Positions 1 through 61,308 of a stretch of DNA of 64,000 bases are shown one piece after another. The DNA lies in contig JAOAJX010000003.1 in the NCBI GenBank assembly GCA_026413945.1, forward strand, positions 21,002 through 85,001. The letters are read 5' to 3'. The position numbers were made by a program, and so were the translations under genes. Each line of letters opens with the position of its first letter. The stretch's first letter is position 1. This stretch comes from Candidatus Iainarchaeum sp. GTDB taxonomy: Archaea > Iainarchaeota > Iainarchaeia > Iainarchaeales > DTGL01. The notes under the pieces are model-generated. The model saw nothing but the letters and a program-made list of their open reading frames with translations, was not told where the DNA came from and ran no database searches.

Positions 1-2
1 CA

Positions 3-1607
3 ATGTGTGCGCAATGTATCAAGCCACAGAAAGATCTAGAGTTGATAGTTTATAAAAACAAAATTTTTACAAAGCAACAATATCTCAAGGATAATTCTTA
101 TGTCATATACCCATTTTTTGTTGATTGTCTAATAAAGCCAATTCGCGGCAAAGTGCTCAAGTCTTACAAGATAAAAGATGCGAATGTTAAAATAGTTCAA
201 GAAGAAGAAAACTTAGAACCAACCTATACTATAACAATACCACATTTGGAGCCAAACATGGAACAGTTACTTTACCTTTATAGGGAATATGAGAGCCACG
301 AACTTAAAGATCCTCTTCTTGTGCGTTGGATAAAACAGCATGGCATTCTTGACTATCTTATGTGTGATCCTAAAGTGCAGGAGATAAATATAAACCCACC
401 GGAATTTCAAAGCCCTTTTAGAATTGTACATGATGATTTTGATGAGTGCAGGACAAATCTTTATCCTTCAATCGACTTCTTGAATTACCTTGCAACTTAT
501 TTGAAAATAAACTCTGGTAGGCCTCTTAATAAGGCACAGCCACAGCTTGACGCAGAACTTATCGTTGAAAACCAACGCGCAAGGGTTGCTGCTGTAGTGC
601 AGCCATTTTCAATTCATGGCATTGGCTATTCAATAAGGCGCCATAGGGAAAAGCCATGGACATTGCCTCTTTTCATAGCTAACAAAACCATAAGCCCACT
701 TTTCGCCGGTTTCATGTCATTCATGATCACACATGGAAGAACATTTCTAACAGCTGGGCCTCGTGGCTCCGGAAAAACTTCCTTGCTAAGCGCATGTATG
801 CTTGAAATACTTCCAAAGTATAGAATTATAACAATCGAAGATACGCAAGAGCTCCCGATCAACTTCTACAAAGAATATGGCTATGACATACTTTCTTTCA
901 AGGTTCGCTCAGCATTATCACCTGAAGGCCTTGAGATACCTTTTGAGAAAGGTCTTAGAACATGCTTAAGATTAGGCAATTCATGCTTAATACTTGGCGA
1001 AGTTCGTTCGCAAGAAGCAAAAGTTCTTTACGAAGCGATGCGTGTTGGCGCAATGGCTAATACAGTGGCAGGAACAATACATGCAGACAATCCATATGGT
1101 GTTTTTGACCGTGTTGTTAATGACTTAGGTGTGCCAAAAGGCTCGTTCAAGGTCACAGACTTGATTATAATAATAAAGCAGATTAAATCTCCAACCGGTC
1201 TTTATCATGTTAGGCGTGTTACTCAGGTTGTTGAAGTGCTAAAAGACTGGCAAGATGAGCCAGTTTTCAGAACACTCATGACCTACGACAAAAAAGAAGA
1301 TTCTTTGGTTCCGACACAAGCATTGATTAAAGGAAATTCAGTTACGATTCAGAACATAATGGAAACAAGTATGGAATATGACTCTTATGATAAGGTTTGG
1401 CGCGATATCACGTTGAGAGCCTGGGCAAAGCAGCGCTTTGTTGAGACACTCTCCGTTTTCAAAGAAAAGCTTGAAGGCCCATATGTGCTCAAAGCAAACA
1501 AATGGTTTGCTGAAGCATTTGAAAAAATAAAGCCATTGCAAAGTGAAGAAGCAGAAAATAAGTTTAAGGAAGAGTATGAGAAACGTCTGCAATTGCTTTG
1601 GAAGTGA
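3..1607 (+). CDS. Type II/IV secretion (VirB11/TadA/FlaI-like) ATPase, probably 5'-truncated by the window edge
   Basis: Walker A GPRGSGKT, Asp box ITIEDTQEL, Walker B ILGEVRSQEA, His box GTIHAD; followed by a TadC-like membrane protein. Confidence 0.92.
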   Translation: MCAQCIKPQKDLELIVYKNKIFTKQQYLKDNSYVIYPFFVDCLIKPIRGKVLKSYKIKDANVKIVQEEENLEPTYTITIPHLEPNMEQLLYLYREYESHELKDPLLVRWIKQHGILDYLMCDPKVQEININPPEFQSPFRIVHDDFDECRTNLYPSIDFLNYLATYLKINSGRPLNKAQPQLDAELIVENQRARVAAVVQPFSIHGIGYSIRRHREKPWTLPLFIANKTISPLFAGFMSFMITHGRTFLTAGPRGSGKTSLLSACMLEILPKYRIITIEDTQELPINFYKEYGYDILSFKVRSALSPEGLEIPFEKGLRTCLRLGNSCLILGEVRSQEAKVLYEAMRVGAMANTVAGTIHADNPYGVFDRVVNDLGVPKGSFKVTDLIIIIKQIKSPTGLYHVRRVTQVVEVLKDWQDEPVFRTLMTYDKKEDSLVPTQALIKGNSVTIQNIMETSMEYDSYDKVWRDITLRAWAKQRFVETLSVFKEKLEGPYVLKANKWFAEAFEKIKPLQSEEAENKFKEEYEKRLQLLWK

Positions 1608-1629: not shown

Positions 1630-3522
1630 ATGTATTTTGATTTTGTTTATAATACTGGAAAGAAAATAAAAATTTTTCCTAAGTCCTCATCTCTTGAAAA
1701 TAAGTTCAAACAAGTCGAATTTCCGTATACTTCAGCGGAGTTTCTTTCAGGGATATTCATTTGGTTTATCATACCTGCTTTTGTTGGAATCTTCTTTTTT
1801 ATCATCGGTGCAGCTTCAAAACTTTGGCTTTTTGAGCTTTTTGGATATATTTTCATTTTCACATCAGTTCTTCTTGCAATATCATCTTATCTTTATGGCG
1901 CAAGCATATACTACACCCAAGGCATCATACAACAAAAAGAAGAGATGCTACAAGCATTACTTGAGATGGCGAATTATATAAGCCTAAATACAAGCATAGA
2001 GTTTGCCTTTACTGAGACAGCAAAAGGCCTTACAGGAGTTCTCGGTAAGCAATTTAAGAACATAGTGACAAAATTAGAGCTTCAGCAGTATGCTACACTT
2101 GGTGATGCATTTGAGGATTACATTCCTGTATGGATGGAAATAAATCCCGATTTTGTAAAAGGCCTTACAATTCTTCAGACCGCAAGCTTGGCACCCCTAA
2201 GCGAAAGAGACAACATGCTGAAAGAAGGCATAAAGACAATAATGCAGGGTTATTACACGATGGGCAAGAGAACAACAGAAACGCTTTCAAATCAAGCAAA
2301 GAATCTAGTTTCAGTTGGAGTTATGCTGCCAATGATGTCATTAATACTTTTGCCAATGATGTCAATATTTTTGCCAAACATGATAAATGTCCCTTTGCTA
2401 ATATTCATTTATGATATTCTTTGCCCCGCCTTGCTATTGCTGTTTGCAATGAACTTTGCTCTCAATCGTGTGCAAGTAAACACAATTGATTTGTCTTTGT
2501 CCCCTAAATTCAAAAAGATGCCGCAAACAATATACCTATTGTGTATATTGGTTGCGATTATTGTTACCGCATTTGGCTTTAGCCACCTTTTTACAATCGA
2601 CATGAGTTCAAAAGAAGGCATAGAAAGAGAATATAAACTTGAGAGTTTGCTGTATGTATGGCTAATTCCTCTCGGAATCTTTTTAGCAGTTGAGTTATAT
2701 CTTTTTTGTTATATCAAGCTCAATGAAAAAATATGGCTTGAAATGCGCGAAGTTGAAGATGATATACCACACCTTCTTCAGGTGGTTAGTAGTTACCTTG
2801 TCCTTAACAGACCTATGGAAAGCATAATCGAGGATGTAAAAGAAGATTACATTAGGCATGGCTTTAAGAGGCATGCTGTTGTTAAAATATTTAGTGAAAT
2901 AACTGATGCACTTTACAATACAAAGAAGACGCTTATTGATTTTGTAAACACTACTCTGCCAGAAATAGTTGCTTCGAAACGTCTCATCCAGATATTTAGG
3001 CGCTTAATACATTTCTCAGAAACAGATATAAAAAATGCAGCAAAGGCAGCAAAGATGATAAGAAGCCACACCCTTTCAATCTTCAGACTTGATAATTATA
3101 TGCAGACGCTTCTGAGCGATACAAGTGCAACCATCGAATTATCAGGTAAAATACTCGCCCCAATACTCGCGGCAACCGCAATAATAATGGCAGTAGCAAT
3201 TGTGATGGCTTTGGAATATATAATAGGACTTATTGAAGGTGTTGGAAAAGCTTTTGGTATACAAATTTCTTTGCAGCTTGTTGATGTTTCAGCCATAATA
3301 CCACCAACTGTTGTTTTGGTTATAGTTGGCATATACTTAATACTTACAATGATAGTTTTGAGCTTATTTCTCGCAAATGTTAAATATGGTACAGATCGCT
3401 ACAAAATAGGTAAGACAATCTTCAATAATCTACTTGTCGGCTTTTTGATATTCAGTGCGCTTTTCTTTATTGGTGTTATGTTGTTTACAACCTTTATATT
3501 TAAGGGGGTGCTTGTAAAATGA
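1630..3522 (+). CDS. Pilus assembly membrane platform protein (TadB/TadC/FlaJ, T2SSF-like)
   Basis: Multiple TM segments with two cytoplasmic T2SSF-like domains (EEMLQALLEMANYISLNTSIEFAF; EDDIPHLLQVVSSYLVLNRPMES); directly after the secretion ATPase. Confidence 0.82.
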   Translation: MYFDFVYNTGKKIKIFPKSSSLENKFKQVEFPYTSAEFLSGIFIWFIIPAFVGIFFFIIGAASKLWLFELFGYIFIFTSVLLAISSYLYGASIYYTQGIIQQKEEMLQALLEMANYISLNTSIEFAFTETAKGLTGVLGKQFKNIVTKLELQQYATLGDAFEDYIPVWMEINPDFVKGLTILQTASLAPLSERDNMLKEGIKTIMQGYYTMGKRTTETLSNQAKNLVSVGVMLPMMSLILLPMMSIFLPNMINVPLLIFIYDILCPALLLLFAMNFALNRVQVNTIDLSLSPKFKKMPQTIYLLCILVAIIVTAFGFSHLFTIDMSSKEGIEREYKLESLLYVWLIPLGIFLAVELYLFCYIKLNEKIWLEMREVEDDIPHLLQVVSSYLVLNRPMESIIEDVKEDYIRHGFKRHAVVKIFSEITDALYNTKKTLIDFVNTTLPEIVASKRLIQIFRRLIHFSETDIKNAAKAAKMIRSHTLSIFRLDNYMQTLLSDTSATIELSGKILAPILAATAIIMAVAIVMALEYIIGLIEGVGKAFGIQISLQLVDVSAIIPPTVVLVIVGIYLILTMIVLSLFLANVKYGTDRYKIGKTIFNNLLVGFLIFSALFFIGVMLFTTFIFKGVLVK

Positions 3523-3619: not shown

Positions 3620-4042
3620 ATGCAAGCGATAGAAGTTGTAATATTTTTTATTTTTGCCTTTTCAGTAGGTATGCTGGTGTTAGCATATATTGTGGGCATT
3701 GATTTCACAGGTCTCCAAAAATCAATCACTTGCCTTTTCATACCTGATAGCTGCAAAGAAGCAATCCATAGCATTCAATATCAGCAGTTTTTCATTGAAA
3801 TTTCTAAATGCTGGAGATCATGTGCTTTCGGAGCCAGGGATGTCAATTGTGGGGTTTACAATGTAAAAACCGAAAAAGTAACGGGCGAAACATTTGACCT
3901 GAATGCTTTAAGAGCATACTTTAAAAAGAACAAGGTTTGTGAGGATTGCAACATACTTATAAAGAATGAGCCATTGGTTTTTCCAGCAATTGTTGAGCTT
4001 TCATGCTCAGATGACCTAAACAGCATATTTATTTCAAACTGA
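3620..4042 (+). CDS. Pilin-like protein, Cys-rich
   Basis: N-terminal MQAIE plus hydrophobic helix; AGGTG SD; several Cys; lies in the pilus locus. Confidence 0.65.
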   Translation: MQAIEVVIFFIFAFSVGMLVLAYIVGIDFTGLQKSITCLFIPDSCKEAIHSIQYQQFFIEISKCWRSCAFGARDVNCGVYNVKTEKVTGETFDLNALRAYFKKNKVCEDCNILIKNEPLVFPAIVELSCSDDLNSIFISN

Positions 4043-4119: not shown

Positions 4120-4869
4120 ATGAATAAGAAAAAAAATATGCTTATTTTTCTCATAGCAGTGTTTTTAATTAGCCAGGCATATTCGGAGGATATAAAAGTA
4201 ATAAGCGCCTCAATCTATTATGATGCCAATTGTGTGACTGTTAAACTAGTTGAGTTAAAGGCAATTTATGGTTATGTCAGTGCTGAAGAGTTTCCAGGTA
4301 ATGCCACACTTTTTCTCTTGGCTGATAATGGGCAAGAACTTTATAAAGGTAGGTTTGGCTTTATAGAGCCAATGCTTGTAGTAAGCCCACCAAGGGCAGA
4401 TGTTGACCCTAAAGCAAATGTTAGCAGCGGAGTGATTTATGCAAACGATACGATAAAGCAAATATTCTTGCCCTACTTTGAACAAGCGTCTAAGATTAAA
4501 ATTGTTTTTGATAGCAACAAGGAGTTTGTTTTTGATATAAAAGAGCGTCTCTGTAACAAAAATTCGATATGTGAAAAAGAAGAAAGCGCAATATCTTGTT
4601 CAGATTGCAAGCCAAATGAGAAAGATGATTTTTGTGTTTTTTATTCTGATGGCATATGCGATCCCGATTGCTTAATAGGTGTTGACTCTGATTGCCTAAA
4701 AACTACTCCTAAAAAAACTCCAACCATACAAGAGACACCAGCACAATCACCTAAAGTGCGCACTGATGAGCATAGCTATAGCTCGATAACAATTATATAC
4801 GTTTTTATAGCGGCATTAGTGCTAATAGTAGTTGCTGTGCTATATATAAAAAGAAAAAAGGGTGATTAG
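4120..4869 (+). CDS. Secreted, C-terminally anchored Cys-rich surface protein
   Basis: Signal peptide, Cys/Asp cluster (CNKNSICE...DGICDPDCLIGVDSDC), Thr/Pro linker, TM helix and KRKK tail. Confidence 0.7.
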   Translation: MNKKKNMLIFLIAVFLISQAYSEDIKVISASIYYDANCVTVKLVELKAIYGYVSAEEFPGNATLFLLADNGQELYKGRFGFIEPMLVVSPPRADVDPKANVSSGVIYANDTIKQIFLPYFEQASKIKIVFDSNKEFVFDIKERLCNKNSICEKEESAISCSDCKPNEKDDFCVFYSDGICDPDCLIGVDSDCLKTTPKKTPTIQETPAQSPKVRTDEHSYSSITIIYVFIAALVLIVVAVLYIKRKKGD

Positions 4870-7033
4870 AATAGCCGACACCTCACAAGTGGTATCTGCT
4901 GCAATCGTAGTTGGACTTTTCTTTGTTGCACTTTTTGCCGTTGAAATAAGCAGATACCAACATGTTGCTCAACAGACAAAAGAAATGGAAACTTATTCTG
5001 AAGAAAAGCGCTTTGAAGAAAGCTTTGATGCTCTGCTTAAAATGACAGAGCCAAGGACAAAGGAAACTATAGGCGAGTTATTTGCAAACTGCGCTTACTA
5101 TGGCGCTGATGATAGAAACTATGGGGGAATAATTGTTAATTGCCGCGATGTGTTAGAAGAGCTTTTCGATAGCTTTTATGGGCGTGAAAATTATTACGCA
5201 AAAATTCCGCAGCACAGCAGTGAGATAACGAAGGGGATTGAAATTTACTTCATCGTTGATACTTCAAAAAGTATGACTGATGACATTAGCAAGATAGGTC
5301 AATCAGTTATTTACATAAAAAATAATTTTACAGGTGACGTTAACTTTCACATATATACACTTGCATCTGTAATGACTGTCCCACAGTGTTCAATGCCAAA
5401 TGTCGAATGCAAGGTAATTCCAGCTTCCGATCTAAGTGAGCTTTGCAAGCAGGCAGGAATACCACCAGAGCACTGTGTTCTTCAGGAAGCTTATGGTTTG
5501 GGGGTTGCATGGGTTGCTCAAAATATTCCAATTGATTCAAATAACATTCGCATTTTAATTCCGCTTTCTGATGAACTTTCTTGCTCTGACGAGTTTATAT
5601 CTCAAGGCACTTCTTATGGTGGTAAAGCTTATGCTGACAAGAGCATTGATTTTGGGATAAGTGTAGCAAAAAACCACAAAAACTTTTATGTTTATCCAAT
5701 CCTATGTGACCCCTTAAATGTTAACAACCCAGGTCAAATTCGACAAATTCACGATGAAAATGCAATAATTGAAGATATGAATAGGTTGGCAAATTCACTC
5801 AAAGGTGAGTTTATTGACTTTTCTAAGGGTTACTCGCAGGCGAAACTCGATATATTGCTTGAAAAAATAATTTTTGGCTCAACCACCAAGCGAGAAGGCC
5901 TTATCGAAATTGGTACAAAAAAAGAACGTGCTGAGCGCTACTCATATGACCGCACAGTAATAATGCCTAGCAAAAAACCAGCTCATTTTACATTATGGGT
6001 TTACAAAGAACGTGTTCCACATCAGATGAAGACTGTTGTTGTCAAGATGCCACCGATAGCCATAATAAATGCAGATCCCAGAGTTTTAGCTCAAGAGCCT
6101 TATACTACAACCCTTGATGGTTCAGCATCTTATGACCCAGATGGTGGCACAATAGTATCATATGAATGGGATTTAAATGGTAAAATTCTGAGTACACAAC
6201 CAAAATTTACACATACTTTTTCGGAGCCGGGGCAATATAAAATTAAGCTAACTGTTACAGATGACGAAGGGCAAAAGGGTTCTACAACCATTACAATATT
6301 TGTTGGCAAAAAACCAACTTTTAATTTCATCTTTGTTCCGGTAAACTGGTCAGGTTCAAATGCAAGTTTCGAATCTACTGCGATGGCACATTTCAATTTC
6401 TTCGTTAAAGGCGCAAAACTCGATGATTGTAAGGATAATTACTCCATTATTATAATGTCTCCAGAATCTCATAATTGCCAGGTTTCGTTGCTAAACAATT
6501 GCATGAGGGAAGGAATGCGCTTCGATGTCTTCAACCAAATTGTTAAATGCGTACAAAACGCTGGTTACAGTATAAATTGGACAAGCATGCGCATAGTCGC
6601 AATTACGAAAAGCGATATATGTTTCTATATTCCACATGCTGAATATGCAATAATTGGCTTTACTGAGTTTGGATCCTATCCTACAGTTTGCGAAGCTCGT
6701 TATAATGAATGTTCTGCTCATGAATTAGGTCATCAATTCTACTTTTGTGAGCAGTATTATCAGAATTCATGGCTGTCTCAGAATTCCCGGCTTTCTTCAA
6801 TAGGGGGATGCAAAAACAAATATCCTGATGGTACAAACCATTGTCAACAATATGGTTCTCTTACAACAAATTGTCCTGAATATCTTGGCAGAATACCTGA
6901 TTGTCTAGGTAGGAAAATACCTGTTGGTGGCTCGGTTGGAAGGAGCCTAATGGGTCCAGGCGGTATCTCAGCACCAAGGCTCTTTGACTGCTTTGAAGAA
7001 CCAGTTATAAGGAGTGCATTGAAATGTCAGTAA
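4862..7033 (+). CDS. Membrane-anchored vWA + PKD + zinc metallopeptidase protein (putative pilus adhesin)
   Basis: N-terminal TM; MIDAS FIVDTSKS...LIPLSDE; PKD (DGSASYDPDG..SYEWD..G.YKIKLTVTDDEG); HELGH and Met-turn-like RSLMGP. Confidence 0.8.
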   Translation: MIRIADTSQVVSAAIVVGLFFVALFAVEISRYQHVAQQTKEMETYSEEKRFEESFDALLKMTEPRTKETIGELFANCAYYGADDRNYGGIIVNCRDVLEELFDSFYGRENYYAKIPQHSSEITKGIEIYFIVDTSKSMTDDISKIGQSVIYIKNNFTGDVNFHIYTLASVMTVPQCSMPNVECKVIPASDLSELCKQAGIPPEHCVLQEAYGLGVAWVAQNIPIDSNNIRILIPLSDELSCSDEFISQGTSYGGKAYADKSIDFGISVAKNHKNFYVYPILCDPLNVNNPGQIRQIHDENAIIEDMNRLANSLKGEFIDFSKGYSQAKLDILLEKIIFGSTTKREGLIEIGTKKERAERYSYDRTVIMPSKKPAHFTLWVYKERVPHQMKTVVVKMPPIAIINADPRVLAQEPYTTTLDGSASYDPDGGTIVSYEWDLNGKILSTQPKFTHTFSEPGQYKIKLTVTDDEGQKGSTTITIFVGKKPTFNFIFVPVNWSGSNASFESTAMAHFNFFVKGAKLDDCKDNYSIIIMSPESHNCQVSLLNNCMREGMRFDVFNQIVKCVQNAGYSINWTSMRIVAITKSDICFYIPHAEYAIIGFTEFGSYPTVCEARYNECSAHELGHQFYFCEQYYQNSWLSQNSRLSSIGGCKNKYPDGTNHCQQYGSLTTNCPEYLGRIPDCLGRKIPVGGSVGRSLMGPGGISAPRLFDCFEEPVIRSALKCQ

Positions 7034-8247
7034 GTTTTTTGAATTTTAAAATAGGCCAAAAAGGAAATATTTTGGCTTTTATTGTAATTGCCATACTCTC
7101 ACTTGTTTTTATACTTGTGCTTACAAGGCATGAGCCTCTAAGAATTCCGAAGGACATAAACACTGAAACAAAAGTGGAAACCATAACAATGGAAAACATA
7201 GTTCGTTCGGTAAGGCAAAGCATACAAAACTTTTCAAAAGAGGGCCTCTCTACGCAATCAAGTCTTTGGGTTTGCAATATTTTTATGCCACCGGTTGCAA
7301 ACGAAATTGATACCAATGGATCTTTTTTTATAAGCAAAGAACTTGGTGGTTGCTTAAGAAGAATAACCGAAGATCTTGGATATGGATATAATACCGATTT
7401 CAATGTATCACTCGGCTTGTATGATGGCAATAGTATGCAAGAACAACTTGACAAAATGATGTCTCTCCCAAACGATCGCGTTGATGTGAATGTTTCTTTT
7501 GTTGTAGCCGGAGCCAAAATTGAAAGCGGTGAAAGAAGGTTTTCAAATAACTATGCTCTATCTTACCCCTATCGAACATGGCATGCTTACAAAAAATACC
7601 TTGAGTGGGGGCAGAATTACTTATCAATACTTGGCCTAGATATCTGCGAAGAATTAAGGAAAGCAAAAGGGCCTTGCCTGTTTGTCGGCAAAGCGGATCC
7701 AACATATCACATACTCACAACCGATGACTATGTTAGATCTAAAATAGATCTCAACGATGTGAATATTGACAACGCACTTAATAAGCAGCTCGACTATCTG
7801 AACCAAATAATGAACCCAATAAGTTTTGAGTGCGAATACGAAAAGATTTCTGAAAAGAAAGACCTTGCGATAAGCAGGGATCAGAATTGTGTTACTCCAC
7901 GTTGTTCAGGTATCCAAATTATTGAGTATGATGTTCCGGGAGCCTGCGGAACACAAGAAGAAAGACATGGCACAGCATGTCCACCAAGAGAAGCTCTCGG
8001 TCCATGGGTGGCACCGCCAATGGGCACAGTTGAGCGCAATTACACGAAGTCCTGCACTGCAGGACAATGCAAAATAGAAATAGTTGGTGCAAACCCATAC
8101 GTAGCCTTTAGTGTAAAATTCAGATGCAAAGATACAACTAGAAGCATTTCCATGGAGCAAGGCGTGGAACCTTACACCTTACAAATAGGCGTTTATGCTA
8201 ATATTGTGCGTGTTTGCCCACCAGTTTCAATACCTCTTGAAAAATAA
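7024..8247 (+). CDS. Cys-rich pilin-like protein with class III signal peptide
   Basis: KIGQKG|NILAFIVIAILSLVFILVL resembles a prepilin cleavage site; many Cys. Confidence 0.62.
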   Translation: MSVSFLNFKIGQKGNILAFIVIAILSLVFILVLTRHEPLRIPKDINTETKVETITMENIVRSVRQSIQNFSKEGLSTQSSLWVCNIFMPPVANEIDTNGSFFISKELGGCLRRITEDLGYGYNTDFNVSLGLYDGNSMQEQLDKMMSLPNDRVDVNVSFVVAGAKIESGERRFSNNYALSYPYRTWHAYKKYLEWGQNYLSILGLDICEELRKAKGPCLFVGKADPTYHILTTDDYVRSKIDLNDVNIDNALNKQLDYLNQIMNPISFECEYEKISEKKDLAISRDQNCVTPRCSGIQIIEYDVPGACGTQEERHGTACPPREALGPWVAPPMGTVERNYTKSCTAGQCKIEIVGANPYVAFSVKFRCKDTTRSISMEQGVEPYTLQIGVYANIVRVCPPVSIPLEK

Positions 8248-45398: not shown

Positions 45399-45427
45399 AA
45401 ATAAACTAAGGTGAGGTGAAAAAAGCT

Positions 45428-48121
45428 ATGAAAAAAATGAATGTAAAGAGACTTGCGGCTTTGGGTGCTGGAATAGCACTGCTTGGAACTGCTTTGGCAC
45501 CGGTTGCTTCAGCGATTTCTCTGACAAGAAGCGATGTTATCAATGCAAACGGCGCTCCGGTTTATGACATTGTTGTCGGTGCAAAAGCAAGCAGCGACGC
45601 ACTCTGGGCAGGAAACATAGCTGCAAAGTTAGCACAGCTTGCATACACAGACAGCGCTGTGACATGCACAGTTGATAGGAGTACAATAGGTGCCGGTGGG
45701 CAAGAAGTAAAACCACAAGCAACAGTATCAGGCCTCAACGTTGAGCTCGTAATTGGCGGCGAAACAACATATGGCGAAGGTACAGCATACATTTATGATG
45801 ACAGTTATTTGAACTCAACAGCTGCTGAACTAGACGCTCCAATAGAGCTTGGAAACTCTAAGATTAAAAGCCTTAAGAACGAGTCATGGGGATATACATA
45901 TAATGGAGCTAACTATTCCCAGACAGTTAGAGAGTTCATTGTTGTGAACCCAGACGCAAAGTTTGAGACAAACCGCGAAGTAAAGGATTTGGTGCTCTAC
46001 ATGCCAAAAGCAGGCGACTTCACTTACAGAGTAACTCTTAGCGGTGGTGTTCCTTTAGATTTCAACAAAACAAATAAATACAATATAACAGTGCCACTAT
46101 TCGGAAAGAAGTATAGTGTCTTGAAGACAAATGCGGATGGAACAGAGCTTACCTTGATAGACGAGGCTGCAAAGCGCACAATAGACGCTGGACAGACAAT
46201 AACCGACTTGGTTGGAAAAGGAAGTTACAAAGGCAAATCTCTATCTGTGCGGTTTGTATCGCTAACAATGAGCAAGTATCTTGGTGGAGATACTTACTAT
46301 ACAGGAAAATTCCAGTTGCTTGACCCTGAAGGCAATGTCATTGCAACAGAAGACAAAGTTGAAGAAGGCGAGTTCCTTGAGCAAGTTTTCTACGTAAATG
46401 GCGAATATCCGTTAGAAACATCAATTTACGTCGATACTTTGTTCAAGCAGGACGTTGACAACGCCAACAAAGCAACTATAACTGTTGGTACAAACACAGT
46501 TAAGCTCAAGGACGGCGAGAAATATCCTTATGATGAAAGAGTTACTTCCTCAAGCGAAAAATACTGGCTTGCAAAGCTATTTAAAGGTACTGGGACAGTC
46601 GGCGGTACCTCACAGGATGTAATAAACAAGATTGAAATTTACAACAATGCGGTTGAAGGCTACAGCAAATGGGACAGGAAAATGCCAATATACGCAAAGA
46701 AGGATACTTTGACAGGAAAAGGCGACAAGAGCGAAGCTATCTTCCTCAACGGCGAACCAAGCACAGCTTTAGGCTATGGCTTTGCCAAAGTAGTATTCCA
46801 GGGCTTCAAGAGCGAAACAATGACAGAGCTCAAGATAAAAGATCACAAGATTTACTATGTAGACGAAGGAGATACCCAGCATGAGATTCCGTTGTACATA
46901 AGCGGCCTTGACAGTACAACAGAGGAATCATTTAACTTTGATAAGCTTGGAACCCAGAAGTATTACTTCAGAATGAGACTTGCTGATGACTATGAGTTAG
47001 GTTGTGAGGACGATGATTGCCAAGGCTGCTTCCAGCTTTCAGACGAGCCATTCAGAAACACTGATTTTGACCTTGATTGTGATAGCCCAGGATATTATCC
47101 ATTCTATGCTGACGATGTAGGAGAGGGCCCTCTTGCCCTTACAGGCGACAACGGCATGGACTATGATTATGAATACTACTACTCCAGCACAGACAACGCA
47201 ATTTGGTTCCTCTTTGCGCCTCAAAAGCTTGAAGGAAAAGGCGGCTATAAGCTCGAGTTTTTAGGTACAGACACAACAGAAGATCTCGGAATCGATAGTG
47301 AATATTACCTGCCAAACGAGTACGAGCTCGGTGGTGGCAAAAGCGGTGAGTATTACACAGCAGTCTTTGAGCTAACAGAACCTACTGGTGGCGGTAGCGG
47401 TAAAATATACATAGATACCGAAGACGGGAGCTTGGCGCCTTTCGGAAATACAAATTACAGCGCAAGCGGATATGAGTTTAAGTATAAGCACCTGGGCACG
47501 GATCAAGAGTTGAACCTAACACAGTACCAGGCATCTACAAATGTGCAGACAGCTTACTCAGACTACGGCAGCAAGTACGACATAAGTCAGGATTACTTCC
47601 AGGCATGGATTCCAGATAAAAGACGCTACATAAGGTACGATATAATAGGGCCTGCTGCTTCAGGGTCAACAATAGTTGGTGGCGAGACACTGCTTCTTAA
47701 CGAAGGCGAGGAGAAAGTTACAAGCGCAGGTACAAGGATTACAGCGAAAAAGATAAACTACAATGTCTCAGTTACACCAACAGTGTGCCCAGCCGGCGGT
47801 GTTGTAATAGAGAACATAAGAGCAACACCAAGCGTCAGCACAGCCAAGAGGATTGTGCCTGTTGGACAGCTTGTCTTCACACACGACGCCGCACTTAGCG
47901 GAAAGCCAAAGATAATTATAGGTGGCTGGAAAGTCAACAGGTTTGCAAAAGACATAACTCTCAGCGACGGCAAGAAGATTACTGAGAGATTAACAGCTAA
48001 AGGCGACTACGTAGTGGACAAGCTTAATGACGGCACCATAATAGTTGCTGGATACACGGCAGCAGACACAGAAGCAGCAGCAAGGGAGCTTATAAGAGAG
48101 CTCGACAGGCTGTTGGGCTAA
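45428..48121 (+). CDS. S-layer protein
   Basis: MKKMNVKRLAALGAGIALLG signal, IVVGAKA..D, IIIGGWKVN, IVAGYTAADTEAAA C-terminus; GAGGTGA SD; strong promoter and terminator; multiple N-X-S/T sequons. Confidence 0.9.
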   Translation: MKKMNVKRLAALGAGIALLGTALAPVASAISLTRSDVINANGAPVYDIVVGAKASSDALWAGNIAAKLAQLAYTDSAVTCTVDRSTIGAGGQEVKPQATVSGLNVELVIGGETTYGEGTAYIYDDSYLNSTAAELDAPIELGNSKIKSLKNESWGYTYNGANYSQTVREFIVVNPDAKFETNREVKDLVLYMPKAGDFTYRVTLSGGVPLDFNKTNKYNITVPLFGKKYSVLKTNADGTELTLIDEAAKRTIDAGQTITDLVGKGSYKGKSLSVRFVSLTMSKYLGGDTYYTGKFQLLDPEGNVIATEDKVEEGEFLEQVFYVNGEYPLETSIYVDTLFKQDVDNANKATITVGTNTVKLKDGEKYPYDERVTSSSEKYWLAKLFKGTGTVGGTSQDVINKIEIYNNAVEGYSKWDRKMPIYAKKDTLTGKGDKSEAIFLNGEPSTALGYGFAKVVFQGFKSETMTELKIKDHKIYYVDEGDTQHEIPLYISGLDSTTEESFNFDKLGTQKYYFRMRLADDYELGCEDDDCQGCFQLSDEPFRNTDFDLDCDSPGYYPFYADDVGEGPLALTGDNGMDYDYEYYYSSTDNAIWFLFAPQKLEGKGGYKLEFLGTDTTEDLGIDSEYYLPNEYELGGGKSGEYYTAVFELTEPTGGGSGKIYIDTEDGSLAPFGNTNYSASGYEFKYKHLGTDQELNLTQYQASTNVQTAYSDYGSKYDISQDYFQAWIPDKRRYIRYDIIGPAASGSTIVGGETLLLNEGEEKVTSAGTRITAKKINYNVSVTPTVCPAGGVVIENIRATPSVSTAKRIVPVGQLVFTHDAALSGKPKIIIGGWKVNRFAKDITLSDGKKITERLTAKGDYVVDKLNDGTIIVAGYTAADTEAAARELIRELDRLLG

Positions 48122-57404: not shown

Positions 57405-60400
57405 TTAACGCTTTTTTGGTTTTAAAGGAATATTGCCTTTGGCCATTGATCTTATTTTTGTAAGTCTTAAAATCGCTTCGCTGTATTTTTCCTTAAATTC
57501 TGCTTTACTTATGTGCTTTTTCATATAAGCTATCTTAAGCCTTTTTATCAAAGATCGCAAGCTTTCTTCTTCGGTTTTTAGATTTTTCATTAGATCTCTC
57601 CTCTCCAAAGTTTTGGATAATATTCTAAATCCCATATAAGCAAAAACTGAAAAAGAGACAATTAAGACTAACAGCCAATTAATATTCTCGTCTTGTTTGA
57701 TCAGTACTACCATTTCCTGTTGATAGGCATATGGCTCTTCAAGCATAAGCTTCAAATAGTGTTCTCCGAAACCCAATGGCTCTTCAAGATTTGCAACATA
57801 AAAGCCACCCGACTTTTTAAATACTACTGCCGAGTTCTTGCCATCAATATTGATTTTTCCATAAATCTCTTCTTCCGTAGGCGTACTATCATCGCTCTTC
57901 AATATAAAGAGCTTTATACTGTTAGTTGGGCCAAGGGAAATGTTGATACCTTGCTTTGGCTCTATCACGGTTACAGTAAAATTTACTAAATAAATAGAAA
58001 AATTTTCTAATGCAACCCAACTCTTATTTTTGTCAAACGCTACTGCCTTTGCTTCACACCCAAGTTTATTACTTTTAAGATCATTTGGTACTTGTATCTT
58101 TAGCAGATGTACATCTTCTTCAGCTTTATAAATTGCCTTTCCGCCATCGCCATTATCACATAAAAACTCAACATTGCCTTTAAGCCCTATTGTAGAGGTT
58201 ATTTTTCCTTTGATTGTCAAAAACTGTCCTTTTACAGCACCTATATTGTAATCTGATAGTTCTAAATCAAAATTAGGATTATCTTTTGAAATAGGTATTC
58301 TAAGCTCTTCAGAAAAATAGTTTCCATATATATCCTCACCTTGAACATAAAGCACAAGACCTTGCTTGAGATTTTCCTCTGATATGCGATGGTCTAAAAC
58401 CATTCTATAATCATATGGGTTGCTTTTGCTGCTGACAGATGCAACTCTTTTCTTTGAATTACTACATTTAAGATAAGCTTCAATATATGCCATTTGCACA
58501 GGTTGGTTTATCTGTGGCACCATCACTCTTATTATTGCATCTTTGATTTCTGAGTTTATGGGATAATTTTTTTCAGCAAAAGGATTATGGTATAATATAA
58601 GTTTCATTGGCTCAAAACTTAAAGGCAAACTACTATTTAATTCAATTTTTCCTGAACTTGAGCTTACCTTTGCAGATATTTTTAAGATTGTGCTATTTTT
58701 TGTTTTATAGTTTGGCAGGTAAGTAATCACCAATTCATTACCGTCAAACTTTGTATTCGTACTCAAACCATCAATAGTAGCGTAAATATTTGTTATTTGT
58801 GATGGTTCTATTGTTTTATTGCCCGCATCCATGAAAGTAACTCTTGCTTCTACCAATTCTGTTTTTTTTAAAGTTTCGCCCCATGTGGGTTTTATCAACC
58901 TAACTCTTATTGCTGAGCGCTTTATCGTCACTTTTTTTTCTGCATAACCCAAATCTTCATCGTCGCTTCCAATAACGGAAACTTTTACCGTGTATTCCTT
59001 TTCATAATTCTCAAAGTTGGCTGGCAAATAATAAACATATTCTTTTTTATTTTTTTTATCAGTAATTATCCTACCATCGCCAAAATCCCATTTATATTTT
59101 AGCTCTGGATAAGCTGCGCTTACAACAAGCTCAAAAGTAATTACCTCGCCTTCATATGCAGTAGTCGGTTCTGCCTTAAAGCCAACTATACTTATTCTTT
59201 TCCTGTTTTGTTCTTGAGGCATGGTGAAAAAAGTTCCTCTGTAGTTTTTCAATTCTACATCAGTGAAACACTTTATCTCATACACGTAAATTGTATCGCT
59301 ATAAAGTTCGGAAAAACTTTGCGTGTGTTCTTTGCTGTTAAGCGTAAAACTATCATACCAGGAAAATATGTCTTCAGTTTTCGCTATACCTATCCGACAT
59401 CTTGATTCAATACTAGTTTTCCATGTTATTTTTGCCTCGTTTGCTGATGTTTGCACTGAAACATCGCTTATTGAAAGTGTCCTAACGGTGGGTGTTGGAA
59501 TTGGTGAGTTTGAAGGTGTTTGAGTTTGCACTGGCGTTGGTGATGGGCTTGGTGAGGGCGATGGCTCAACCGATGATGAAAAATCCTCAACACAAAATTC
59601 AGCGCTTTTCTCCGTCTCCAAATTTCCTGCCTTGTCGGAAGATCTATAGTTTATTCTGTGACATCCAGCATCTGTAATATTAAATTCAGTTCCAGTTGAC
59701 CAATTGCTTCCATCAACACGATAATTTGTATCTTCGCACCCAGATACCAATTCGATTTCAGCAATATTTAAGCCTAGGCCATATGGTGAGGTATCTTTGC
59801 ACACAAGGGAAATTTTTGGATTCTTTATTACACTTATATTATCAATCCTGAACTTGCCTATCGACTTTACATATGCATCGAACTTCACCTTAAAATTCAT
59901 AGTTCTGTATTCTTTAGGAATATCGATTTTAAATACTTCGCCCATCAAGTCAAGCTCGCTGCTAACTTTCTTAAAAAGTTGACAGTTGGTGTCAGAGCCG
60001 CTACAAAAATAAAGATATAAATAATCTTCAGCCCCCCAATTCTCTTTCATTGCCCAAAACTCAATTATCGCGCTTTCAGCACCGGCCAAATTTATGCTTT
60101 TTGAGATAAGATGCCCCTTTCTTTGTTCTGTTGCAGTTGCAATGCCTGTACGGTAACTTGTCTGGACTATGGTCCAATTGGTTTTTTCCCATCGCAACTC
60201 ATCAAAAGTGTTTTTGTCAAAAGTATCCTTAAAAACAACTGATGCTTTCGACATTATCGCATCTGTTGGAGGTGCTACACCATCAACTTTTATGTACGCT
60301 ACACTTGGCTTTTCAAAGTTACCTGCAAAATCCTTTGATGCATATGCTATTAGCGTAGGCTCATTTAAAGTCACAGTTATACTCGATTTTCCGGAGGATT

Positions 60401-61073
60401 GTATTAATTGCTTTAACCTTTCTATGTTGTCCTTGTTTTTCCAAATATCTGTAAATGCTTGTGCTTCAGAAACACCGGCTTTTTTATAATAAATTGAGCT
60501 GCACCCTACACCTACATCTGAGCATTGAAGGGTTACATCAGATTGGCCTTTAAGCCAGGTTTTTATATCCGGCGAAAAACTCGTCTTTGGCAACTTTTTG
60601 TCTCTCTCAAGACAGTATTTCATATTGAGATCATATTCCTCATAATCATTAGCATCACAAAGATCTGGCCTGCTGCACGCCCACCTATAACATAACAATT
60701 TGACCCTTATAATTGCATTTTCAGATGCAAAATCAGTGCTCAAGTTAAAAGTTGCCTCTATTTTTCCATCGCATTTTCTATCATCACATCCAGGCAATTT
60801 TTTTATCGTTTTGTGCATTTCCTTTAAGCTACCTTGGTCTATAGAAACCAGGCACCTTGGTTCGTAACTACTAAGATTATCTTTTGGGATATTTTCCAAC
60901 ACTACTTCAACGTTTGCATAAAAAGTCATATCAATTTTGCCTGTGTTATAAACATTGCAATTTTTATCAATACTTTTTATCTCTAGTCTTGCAGATGGTT
61001 GATAATTCCCTTCAACATAGCAAAGAGCACTAATAAGCAAAATTTGGACTAAGCAAGCCAGATTTCTTTTCAT
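57405..61073 (-). CDS. Large surface protein (paralog of 19718-22909)
   Basis: True start probably MKRNLACL at 61073 (the track ORF runs through the tRNA); Ig-like YRSSDKAGNLE, SP/TP linker, fn3-like unit, YKWDFGDG, TM, YMKKHISKAEFKEKY. Confidence 0.78.
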   Translation of the reverse strand: MKRNLACLVQILLISALCYVEGNYQPSARLEIKSIDKNCNVYNTGKIDMTFYANVEVVLENIPKDNLSSYEPRCLVSIDQGSLKEMHKTIKKLPGCDDRKCDGKIEATFNLSTDFASENAIIRVKLLCYRWACSRPDLCDANDYEEYDLNMKYCLERDKKLPKTSFSPDIKTWLKGQSDVTLQCSDVGVGCSSIYYKKAGVSEAQAFTDIWKNKDNIERLKQLIQSSGKSSITVTLNEPTLIAYASKDFAGNFEKPSVAYIKVDGVAPPTDAIMSKASVVFKDTFDKNTFDELRWEKTNWTIVQTSYRTGIATATEQRKGHLISKSINLAGAESAIIEFWAMKENWGAEDYLYLYFCSGSDTNCQLFKKVSSELDLMGEVFKIDIPKEYRTMNFKVKFDAYVKSIGKFRIDNISVIKNPKISLVCKDTSPYGLGLNIAEIELVSGCEDTNYRVDGSNWSTGTEFNITDAGCHRINYRSSDKAGNLETEKSAEFCVEDFSSSVEPSPSPSPSPTPVQTQTPSNSPIPTPTVRTLSISDVSVQTSANEAKITWKTSIESRCRIGIAKTEDIFSWYDSFTLNSKEHTQSFSELYSDTIYVYEIKCFTDVELKNYRGTFFTMPQEQNRKRISIVGFKAEPTTAYEGEVITFELVVSAAYPELKYKWDFGDGRIITDKKNKKEYVYYLPANFENYEKEYTVKVSVIGSDDEDLGYAEKKVTIKRSAIRVRLIKPTWGETLKKTELVEARVTFMDAGNKTIEPSQITNIYATIDGLSTNTKFDGNELVITYLPNYKTKNSTILKISAKVSSSSGKIELNSSLPLSFEPMKLILYHNPFAEKNYPINSEIKDAIIRVMVPQINQPVQMAYIEAYLKCSNSKKRVASVSSKSNPYDYRMVLDHRISEENLKQGLVLYVQGEDIYGNYFSEELRIPISKDNPNFDLELSDYNIGAVKGQFLTIKGKITSTIGLKGNVEFLCDNGDGGKAIYKAEEDVHLLKIQVPNDLKSNKLGCEAKAVAFDKNKSWVALENFSIYLVNFTVTVIEPKQGINISLGPTNSIKLFILKSDDSTPTEEEIYGKINIDGKNSAVVFKKSGGFYVANLEEPLGFGEHYLKLMLEEPYAYQQEMVVLIKQDENINWLLVLIVSFSVFAYMGFRILSKTLERRDLMKNLKTEEESLRSLIKRLKIAYMKKHISKAEFKEKYSEAILRLTKIRSMAKGNIPLKPKKR

Positions 61074-61142
61074 GAAAATAATACCATTTGCATAAATAAA
61101 AATGTTTCTAATGTGATTCAAAATATAACTAAAAAAAGTGAG

Positions 61143-61215
61143 TGCCCCAGCCGGGATTCGAACCCGGGCTACTGGCTTGAAAGGCCAGGGTGCTTGACCG
61201 CTACACCACCGGGGC
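61143..61215 (-). tRNA. tRNA-Glu (anticodon TTC), no intron, CCA not encoded
   Basis: GCCCCGG acceptor / CTGGGGC-A; D-arm GTG..CAC; CTGGC-CT-TTC-AA-GCCAG; CCGGG-TTCGAAT-CCCGG. Confidence 0.96.
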
Positions 61216-61308
61216 AATGCTACATTAGAATTAATGCCGATAAAATGTTTTTTAAATGTAACCCACAATAAGCATATAATCTAGCTTATATTGCTTATAG
61301 GTGTTCTT

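Follow-up and report, generated by a model that had tools for sequence, protein, structure and literature searches.

An anchored vWA-PKD protein with an optional metzincin-clan protease module as a putative accessory subunit of an Iainarchaeota type IV filament system

In the Tad pili of bacteria, CpaL combines a pilin-like module with a vWA domain and has been modelled at the pilus tip together with CpaJ and CpaK, and TadG has been detected in fibre preparations (PMC12607857). Among the bacterial modular pilins surveyed by Raynaud et al. 2021 (PMC8179133), a vWA module is present in PilB, and a peptidase, IPR030392, belongs to the frequent architectures. The eukaryotic CLCA1 (‘CLCAsin’) is a secreted metzincin-type metallohydrolase with VWA and beta-sandwich domains, for which it has been suggested that ligand binding by the VWA domain could regulate the protease (bioRxiv 10.1101/2025.10.18.683246). 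Type IV pilins are made with a class III signal peptide, the positively charged leader of which is removed by an A24 peptidase to leave a hydrophobic N-terminus of about 20 residues (PMC4858521). In the full text of the same paper (Makarova et al. 2016), as covered by a search for terms, ‘PKD’, ‘metallo’ and ‘DPANN’ have 0 occurrences each, and mentions of vWA are confined to regulators of the ArnB type and to TadG. Makarova et al. 2019 (PMC6393860) note that DPANN archaea have divergent loci for type IV pili in which the pilins are not recognisable, and He et al. 2021 (PMC7906910) describe pili that extend from ultrasmall cells into their hosts. A literature search, supplementary tables lying outside of it, found no description of a metzincin on an archaeal pilus protein, in agreement with the initial annotation of the DNA considered here, the author of which knew of no such architecture from an archaeal pilus. 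The subject of the present analysis is the gene P0001 (hereinafter the target), located within a stretch of 64,000 nucleotides (the window) from Candidatus Iainarchaeum sp. (assembly GCA_026413945.1, contig JAOAJX010000003.1, positions 21,002 to 85,001 of the forward strand), and the type IV filament locus to which this gene belongs.

DPANN archaea have tiny genomes and are mostly dependent on hosts. To our knowledge, there is no account of the means by which they recognise, hold and breach another cell, and we know of no identification of the tip proteins of the imaged pili that enter host cells. The locus described here provides a concrete, conserved candidate, namely a predicted integrin-like metal-dependent adhesion domain on a filament-associated anchor that is fused to a protease in some lineages. 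The interpretation toward which we lean, with modest confidence, is that the target is a large and conserved accessory subunit belonging to a type IV filament system specific to the Iainarchaeota (Diapherotrites, DPANN), which would combine surface display, a grip mediated by a MIDAS (an adhesion site dependent on metal ions) and a distal predicted protease. The parts of the target, with coordinates in the window and residues numbered along the translation, are as follows.

4862..7033, + strand: target open reading frame (ORF) P0001, 723 amino acids, listed start GTG; six homologs of full or nearly full length, P0010-P0015, in the protein database and L061, L068, L074, L095, L099 and L102 in genomes
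4862..5215, + strand: N-module, residues 1-118, comprising the anchor and a conserved stalk region (LLKMTEP...LFDSFYGRENYY), from alignments
4889..4951, + strand: hydrophobic helix of the anchor, residues ~10-30; the short stretch ahead of it is uncharged (MA-DTSQ in orthologs), from the N-terminal alignment of 12 homologs
5216..5905, + strand: integrin-beta-I-like vWA domain, residues ~119-348, from hhalign and profile searches of the PDB
5258..5284, + strand: DTSKSMTDD, the MIDAS motif DxSxS (DTSKS is D133-S137) followed by an integrin-beta-type MxDD, similar to the site adjacent to MIDAS (ADMIDAS)
5486..5488, + strand: E209, a Glu invariant in 12/12 homologs, placed by hhalign at the MIDAS Thr of the template
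5567..5581, + strand: SDELS, S236-S240, present in 12/12 homologs, counterpart of the end of the ‘SDG’ strand of vWA domains, where the last MIDAS Asp is located
5906..6052, + strand: beta segment, residues 349-397, which in P0015 directly adjoins the N-module and with which the L099 and L102 orthologs end
6053..6304, + strand: PKD domain, residues 398-481, above the Pfam cut-offs
6305..7030, + strand: zinc peptidase domain, residues 482-723, with 14 Cys, predicted from profile searches to belong to an unannotated family of the metzincin clan
6719..6757, + strand: HELGHQFYFCEQY, H620-Y632, including H620, E621, H624, E630 (third-ligand position) and Y632
6944..6955, + strand: SLMG, candidate Met-turn, S695-G698; M697, within GRSLMG, is invariant in 47/47 members of the protease family and in 10/10 locus-linked homologs

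All the elements that the initial annotation had placed in this ORF, i.e., the N-terminal helix, DTSKS, SDE, the PKD domain, HELGHQFYFCEQY, SLMG and numerous cysteines (22 in the whole protein), are present at the positions it gave, and its three domain calls (a vWA domain with an intact MIDAS, a PKD domain, and a metzincin-like domain with HExxH...[D/E]xY and a conserved Met) are upheld by controlled profile comparisons. When the single protein is compared to Pfam and NCBIfam, PKD is the only domain named, with the vWA domain remaining below the Pfam threshold (the best match is TssR_VWA, E 0.037; Integrin_beta, E 0.17), and family profiles are needed to detect the vWA and protease domains. 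A word-indexed search of 5.8 billion proteins started with the whole target yields 171 matches; beyond those that are limited to the PKD domain, only six other proteins, P0010-P0015, align to it, with 86-41% identity, under the source name ‘PKD domain-containing protein, Candidatus Diapherotrites archaeon’. Word-indexed searches with residues 1-395 or with a 10-sequence profile, the latter swamped by PKD matches, return no further relatives. In the 7-row alignment of the target with P0010-P0015, the HExxH block and GRSxM are invariant, and DxSxS is retained in all 6 sequences that include the respective region. The window protein has no entry in the ESM Atlas; its homolog P0010 points there to two clusters, one unnamed from Aenigmatarchaeota (0.92) and one labelled VWA (0.82), to be taken as a lead only. 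The ratio of nonsynonymous to synonymous substitution rates between the target and its closest ortholog (L003) is ~0.05 in each domain, which is a rough value because the synonymous rate is saturated (~1.8); it indicates that all domains of the target evolve under strong purifying selection.

The assignment of residues ~119-348 to the vWA superfamily is supported by several profile comparisons. A local hhalign comparison of a 6-sequence profile with ten vWA domains from related genomes gives a probability of 64.6% and an E-value of 6.2e-5 over 182 collinear columns, with DxSxS paired with DxSGS and SDELS with LLSDG, and with ten controls at or below 0.3%. A 9-sequence profile that includes distant homologs gives a probability of 72.8% over 86 columns; over both runs, all 16 controls out of 16 stay at or below 0.6%. 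When compared to the PDB, a 12-sequence profile matches integrin beta-6 (E 4e-5) and integrin beta-8 (E 3e-4), and a profile of the vWA domain only has 23 matches with E<=1, each of them to an integrin I or beta-I domain (best E 6.4e-4). The conserved residues fit this relationship: D133, S135, E209 and SDELS are invariant in the 12 homologs, which span 21-87% identity, and the pattern D-x-S-x-[ST]-[ML]-x-[DN]-[DE] is present in all of them, the vWA profile DgSkslkDD being aligned to DLSASMDDD of integrin beta-6. Compared with the MIDAS signature, stated as DxS/TxS/T ... T ... D (PMC12607857), the family retains DxSx[ST] and the Asp of SDELS in 12/12 sequences, and the Thr position is occupied by Glu (E209), likewise in 12/12. 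For integrin beta-3, it is described that a carboxylate oxygen of Glu220 is shared with the MIDAS ion and that the two Asp residues following SxS bind the ADMIDAS ion (PMC3792891); the putative equivalence of E209 with the integrin Glu is given by hhalign only, because the later part of the HMMER alignment is out of register. Taken together, these comparisons identify residues ~119-348 as a predicted integrin-beta-like vWA domain with what would be a complete metal-site signature, DxSxSMxDD...E...SDELS. The PKD domain that follows is unequivocal (PF18911, E 6e-15, 55.5 bits against a cut-off of 27; PF00801, E 3.3e-11, 43.4 bits against a cut-off of 23.5), and a profile of the target and its relatives matches the PKD domain of ColH with an E-value of 8.6e-19.

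The relatives of the C-terminal domain were sought by scanning all 1.84 billion representatives with HMMER, the query being residues 480-723. The scan identifies 121 representative clusters at E<=1e-3, 21 of these at E<=1e-10, from both archaea and bacteria, and so delineates a metzincin-clan family that has not been annotated. Ten of the clusters were examined by name; all are ‘hypothetical protein’ or unnamed and come from Diapherotrites and Anaerolineaceae, and the members of the family carry just ‘hypothetical’ labels in public databases. In a Pfam comparison of 30 relatives, the protease domain is below the threshold throughout, with faint matches to M7 and Reprolysin, and the other domains named are PD40 and PKD. 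The family consensus is TAHELGHTFGLCDEYxYxxWxxQN..GCPNPYP..C..C.G..SIMGP. The HExxH motif is present in 125 of 126 members, and in 47/47 members HExxH, the Tyr two positions past the D/E (Y632 in the target), one Gly and the Met (M697) are invariant. Among 125 members, position +10 is occupied by D in 88 cases, by E in 26 and by C in 11 (a shift by one residue), Gly is at +7 in 69, and Tyr is at +12 in 114. The window protein, in which +7 is Tyr and +10 is Glu, is one of a ‘CEQY’ minority. The consensus HELGHTFGLCDEY conforms to the extended metzincin motif HEXXHXXGXXH/D (PMC3890501), and the target itself, with Y at +7 and E at +10, does not.

A search of the PDB with the family profile identifies archaemetzincin (2x7m, E 1.3e-5), snapalysin (1c7k and 4hx3, E 6.5e-5) and ADAM17 (E ~5e-3); in the snapalysin alignment, AHELGHtFglCDeY of the family is paired with AHETGHVLGLPDHY. 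When 40 members are compared singly to Pfam, almost all sub-threshold matches are to zincin-clan families, including Reprolysin_5 in 33/40 and Peptidase_M7 in 22/40. An hhalign comparison of the family with five M54 archaemetzincins of the same phylum gives a probability of 92.2% (E 6e-7) over 54 columns that extend from the ‘DRxIGxT’ strand to HELGH, with 8 controls (1 reversed, 6 shuffled, 1 unrelated) at or below 0.5%. By the definitions of PMC3890501, residues 482-723 are predicted to be a zincin with Met-zincin features, a putative peptidase of an unannotated metzincin-clan family. Four Cys are almost invariant and may provide a second metal site or disulfides.

Membership in two described families was considered and rejected. 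For the snapalysin family M7, PF02031 matches are obtained in 22/40 relatives, the best with an E-value of 5.4e-4, below the cut-off, and there is none for the window domain; moreover, M697 lies ~65 residues past E630, compared with ~10 in snapalysin, a small enzyme of ~130 amino acids (PMC3890501). For the archaemetzincins, M54, the signature HEXXHXXGXXHCX4CXMX17CXXC (PMC3427221) is absent, the third position being Glu, preceded by a Cys, with a different spacing; PF07998 has no match in the window genome. Accordingly, the metzincin-like peptidase proposed in the initial annotation, for which a MEROPS assignment was to be sought, has HExxH and profile matches to the clan and falls in neither M7 nor M54.

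Elsewhere in the phylum, the protease module is found in large proteins with beta-helix, CARDB, laminin-G or Ig-like domains. The proteins P0139 and P0140 consist of a helix anchor (MKG|LSTWIW...), a globular part of ~150 amino acids, a Thr-rich linker and the same protease domain, and may represent an independent ‘anchor plus protease’ design. A metagenome scan with the P0139/P0140 subgroup identifies 5 distant loci, in none of which a filament ATPase is encoded nearby; three of these have bacterial-type genes for CxxCD-transmembrane (TM)-protease proteins of ~300 amino acids, and two encode proteins of ~880 amino acids. With no filament ATPase nearby, these loci are silent on the pilus linkage. 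In the bacterial branch (P0143-P0185, loci L104-L106; one cluster is named Anaerolineaceae), the proteins have ~300 amino acids, with an N-terminal CxxCD, a single TM helix, a linker rich in Pro/Thr and the HELGHTFGLCDEY domain, and the genes sometimes occur in tandem with short CxxCD-TM genes.

The context of the target is a locus with the hallmarks of a type IV filament system, the other genes of which are listed below.

1..1607, + strand: type II/IV secretion-family ATPase, the true start of which is 58 nucleotides upstream of the window (L002 position 11943)
1630..3522, + strand: polytopic membrane protein, 630 amino acids, directly 3' of the ATPase gene, by inference a FlaJ/TadC-type platform
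3620..4042, + strand: P0004, small Cys-containing pilin-like protein, 140 amino acids, beginning with MQAIEVV followed by a hydrophobic helix
4120..4869, + strand: P0005, consisting of a Sec-type signal, an ectodomain rich in Cys and a TM anchor at the C-terminus, as judged from the translation
7024..8247, + strand: P0006, 407 amino acids, with a class-III-like N-terminus QKG|NILAF and a Cys-rich ectodomain
L002 8823-10595, - strand: four small pilin-like genes upstream, with hydrophobic N-termini

The ATPase matches T2SSE in Pfam (E 2.7e-16) and, below the cut-offs, FlaI (E 1.1e-32) and TadA (E 2.8e-30) in NCBIfam; with 60 bits, it is the weakest and most divergent of the 7 T2SSE matches of the genome. 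Upstream of it are two coiled-coil genes and, on the opposite strand, the four small genes. In 5/5 loci from Iainarchaeum metagenome-assembled genomes, the genes follow one another, as far as the contigs reach, in the order coiled-coil 1, coiled-coil 2, ATPase, platform, P0004, P0005, target, P0006. P0005 homologs are present at the same locus in L003, L005, L006, L007, L061 and L068, and P0006 adjoins the target in L003, L004, L005, L006, L099 and L102. The target overlaps P0005 by 8 nucleotides and P0006 by 10 nucleotides.

Searched across the phylum, the protease profile is found in 29 of 215 genomes, and the DNA around 20 of these protease-bearing loci was fetched, up to ~9 kilobases per side and less at contig ends. 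In 4 of the 20, the protease gene adjoins this ATPase and platform; one of these coincides with the contig of L006. The remaining 3 (L061, L068 and L074), from three other families, encode full-length homologs of the target with 23-26% identity, together with homologs of P0004, the pilin-likes, P0005 and P0006; in L061 and L074, the target homolog is directly beside a run of small pilin-like genes, and in L068, a P0005 homolog is in between. The idea that the protease family is linked to pili in general is rejected, given that only these 4 of the 20 protease loci are next to this ATPase and platform. A second survey was seeded with the platform protein, so as to avoid selection on the protease. 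Platform orthologs are present in 17 of the 215 genomes, and of 9 further loci, 6 contain a target homolog and 3 are cut off beforehand by the end of the contig; the usual order in these loci is ATPase, platform, P0004, pil132, pil186, pil140, pil134, target, P0006. A T2SSE-family ATPase, a platform and other pilins thus accompany the target homolog in 5/5 close, 3/3 distant and 6/9 platform-seeded loci, so that the type IV pilus-like linkage put forward in the initial annotation is conserved across families of the order. This genomic evidence shows the target to be conserved as part of a type IV filament locus of the Iainarchaeota.

The five small pilin-like proteins are related to each other by hhalign (pil132-pil186, 95.7%; P0004-pil132, 70%; pil186-pil140, 70%; P0004-pil186, 49%). 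The N-terminus of P0004 is MQ[AVT]IE in 7 of 8 aligned members, with MESLE in L061. The pil186 ortholog of L006 is leaderless. P0006 has no Pfam match, and a PDB search with the P0006 profile is empty; its orthologs, of 407 to ~785 amino acids, have conserved cysteines (homologs include L099 12682-15036 and L102 6277-8394), and it is the second large subunit of the locus without a family name. The window genome (0.95 Mb, 92% complete) has 7 T2SSE ATPase genes and 3 A24 prepilin peptidase genes (on contigs C11, C15 and C18), a very high density of type IV filament systems for a genome of this size. Elsewhere in the window, 45416-48121 encodes a protein of 901 amino acids with an outer domain similar to that of surface-layer (S-layer) proteins (PF05124, E 2.3e-10), within the sole stretch of raised G+C content (0.44 compared to ~0.38). 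At 57405-61268 (- strand), there is an ORF of 1287 amino acids without a Pfam match; its start is probably further downstream than the listed TTG, because the latter overlaps the gene of tRNA-Glu(TTC) on the same strand, at 61142-61215.

Several observations weigh against the interpretation of the target as a protease-bearing filament subunit. With respect to the enzyme, the target departs from the canonical HExxHxxG motif, with Tyr in place of Gly and Glu in place of His/Asp, and its own protease domain has 0 Pfam matches at E<=1. The module is absent from 4 complete orthologs (L095, L097, L099 and L102) and degenerate in L074 (8514-11156, - strand), where SHALGY...CSEY replaces HExxH...D/E, and 16 of the 20 protease-bearing genes have no filament ATPase or platform within the fetched DNA. 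With respect to the filament, the identity of the platform is weak (Spore_III_AB in 5/10 orthologs, best E 1.7e-6; T2SSF in 1/10, E 0.029), and the platform-family profile finds no sequence match in the PDB. The N-terminus of the target has no charged [K/R]-[G/A/S] leader in the alignment of 12 homologs, and the N-module shows no detectable relationship to the small pilin-likes of the locus (hhalign probability <=3.1%). Finally, the codon homologous to the ortholog starts is ATA in the window genome. The ortholog starts, ATG in L003 and L006 and TTG in L005, align with this ATA at 4871-4873, and the listed GTG (4862) falls within a conserved GGTGAT box resembling a Shine-Dalgarno sequence; the target would start either at a rare ATA or at a shifted GTG.

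The orthologs that lack the protease clarify the architecture. Those of L099 and L102 (656 and 651 amino acids) stop right past the segment equivalent to residues 349-397, and those of L095 (591 amino acids) and L097 stop past a PKD or PKD-like domain. The L095 ortholog, with the layout anchor-vWA-PKD, aligns with the N-terminal part of the target at an hmmsearch E-value of 2.8e-94. In P0015 (L006 6603-8300, 563 amino acids), the PKD and protease domains are present and the vWA insert (residues ~120-348) is missing, with the N-module retained, i.e., the vWA domain is an insert between the N-module, with its stalk of ~90 residues, and the C-terminal beta segment of that module. Since 4 orthologs have no protease and 1 has a degenerate one, the protease is an optional module on a conserved vWA subunit and not a defining part of it. 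Homologs without the motif or the pilus linkage would, according to the initial annotation, refute its proposal; the linkage is conserved and the motif is absent from four complete proteins and degenerate in one, so that this objection applies in part. In a tree of the platform protein, midpoint-rooted for drawing only, the loci with vWA only are on one side and the protease state needs two changes; the dead protease copy (G150) is sister to the module-less clade, so that decay followed by loss fits. The tree of the protease domain is compatible, in its deep forks, with a single fusion as well as with several. These patterns are best compatible with an older anchor-vWA carrier to which the protease was added as a lineage-specific effector. 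A relative in L059 (3-2723) carries a degenerate HLLGH, and the protease domains of L074 and L059 are likely to be pseudo-proteases. L006 contains a second, stand-alone protease gene, P0129 (9541-10386, 225 amino acids), 3' of the P0006 homolog.

In the interpretation that we favor, the filament machinery, i.e., the ATPase, the platform and the five small pilin-likes, would display the target on the cell surface, most likely as a minor-pilin-like, tip-associated subunit, as proposed for CpaL and TadG and shown for PilB of Streptococcus sanguinis. The MIDAS site would bind an acidic residue of a protein ligand, and the distal protease would perform zinc-dependent cleavage of protein near the point of contact, for example, in the proteinaceous envelope of a partner cell or particle. 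The target could, in this manner, both grip and cut another surface. A more specific and much more speculative version, which we consider unlikely as it stands, places an integrin-like grip and a metzincin ‘cutter’ at the filament tip: the MIDAS would latch onto an acidic motif of the host S-layer, the protease would digest the layer locally, and the pilus would penetrate it or open a contact. Were this the case, the tip would provide a molecular basis for the episymbiont pili that enter host cells (PMC7906910), and the lineages without the module, or with an inactive one, would have changed host or lifestyle.

The alternative that fares best is that the target is a signal-anchored (type II) surface adhesin and protease that is co-expressed with the filament genes and kept in the membrane, where it may tether the base of the filament, as once proposed for TadG. 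We regard this as rather less than probable, although it has to be taken seriously. The initial annotation described the N-terminus as a TM or pilin-like helix; the hydrophobic helix is indeed present (mean Kyte-Doolittle value 2.55 over 19 residues), whereas the charged leader and any detectable homology to the locus pilin-likes are not. The ortholog N-termini are MA-DTSQ, MA-ESSH or MS-AVSN, with no K/R-G, and three other proteins of the locus, pil186, pil134 and P0006, have KG (or AG/AA) ahead of the helix, the leader of pil186 and pil134 being short, which, along with the unrelated N-module, argues for membrane residence; Makarova et al. 2016 (PMC4858521) cite a hypothesis in which TadG attaches the pilus to the membrane. 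However, P0004, pil132 and pil140, undoubted pilin-like paralogs, are also leaderless, with Met directly before the hydrophobic helix, and in L061, L095, L099, L102 and L074 the gene of the target family is directly 3' of pilin-like genes. Furthermore, most orthologs have A or S ahead of the polar start, which would fit a very short, 2-residue class III leader, and the polar start itself resembles the post-cleavage start of the pil134 family (DTSTQV, SISIQV). We infer the pilin status and the tip location of the target from genomic context and precedent. If the membrane-resident reading is true, the target would still be a new surface protease-adhesin, of ordinary interest.

It is considerably less probable that the protease acts on its own cell, either by maturing or trimming the Cys-rich partners (P0005, P0006 and the pilin-likes) or by opening the S-layer of that cell for passage of the filament. 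The overlaps with P0005 and P0006, which suggest translational coupling, the presence of the S-layer-like protein in the same window and the extra stand-alone protease copy beside the locus in L006 are all in line with such a role. Yet the loci L095, L099 and L102 keep all the partner genes without a protease, so that the protease is not needed for assembly, and in the target, this domain is at the membrane-distal end, past the vWA domain and the PKD spacer. Least probable of all, and in our view quite improbable, is that the C-terminal domain is a non-catalytic binding module in the window genome too: the substitutions of Gly by Tyr and of Asp/His by Glu, along with the dead copies in L074 and L059, speak for it, but H620, E621, H624, [D/E]630, Y632 and M697 are intact here and in 9/10 locus-linked homologs, Glu is at the third-ligand position in 26/125 family members, the third-ligand Asp is often replaced by Glu in another zincin family (PMC3890501), and purifying selection is strong.

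The preferred reading, that of an accessory filament subunit, can now be set against the known systems. Like CpaL and TadG of bacterial Tad pili, the target joins a helix-anchored N-terminal module of ~120 residues to a vWA domain with a candidate MIDAS and is encoded in a pilus operon beside putative minor pilins. In a comparison by description only, it differs from them in being archaeal, in the integrin-beta-like character of the vWA domain, with Glu in place of the MIDAS Thr and the MxDD extension, and in the addition of a PKD domain and a C-terminal metzincin domain, without a recognisable charged leader. The helix-anchored vWA-PKD protein of the L095 type belongs to the same gene family and the same type of locus, and the target adds to it a metzincin module of 242 residues. 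Orthologs with the protease, without it and with a dead one all occur, so that the family offers a natural experiment for correlation with lifestyle.

With PilB of S. sanguinis and the other modular pilins (PMC8179133), the target would share the principle of a carrier pilin module with a grafted effector module. The survey of modular pilins sought proteins with an N-terminal IPR012902, its text has 0 occurrences of archaea, and the peptidase it reports is not a metzincin; in the target, two putative effectors, the vWA domain and the protease, are mounted on one carrier. The idea of the modular pilin, carrier plus effector, would thereby be extended to archaea and to a two-effector, bind-and-cut design.

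As for the protease, snapalysin (MEROPS M7) and archaemetzincin are the best matches of the family among solved structures, and in the profile alignment the family consensus HELGHTFGLCDEY parallels HETGHVLGLPDHY of snapalysin; unlike both enzymes, the target domain is larger, extracellular and Cys-rich. CLCA1, like the target, combines a metzincin and a VWA domain in one protein, a likeness of architecture only; unlike CLCA1, in which the protease comes first, the target has the opposite domain order, a membrane- or pilin-type anchor and a place in a filament locus. Viewed against these systems, the target is predicted to extend the modular vWA minor-pilin and adhesin type, represented by CpaL, TadG and PilB, with an optional protease of a previously undescribed metzincin-clan family.

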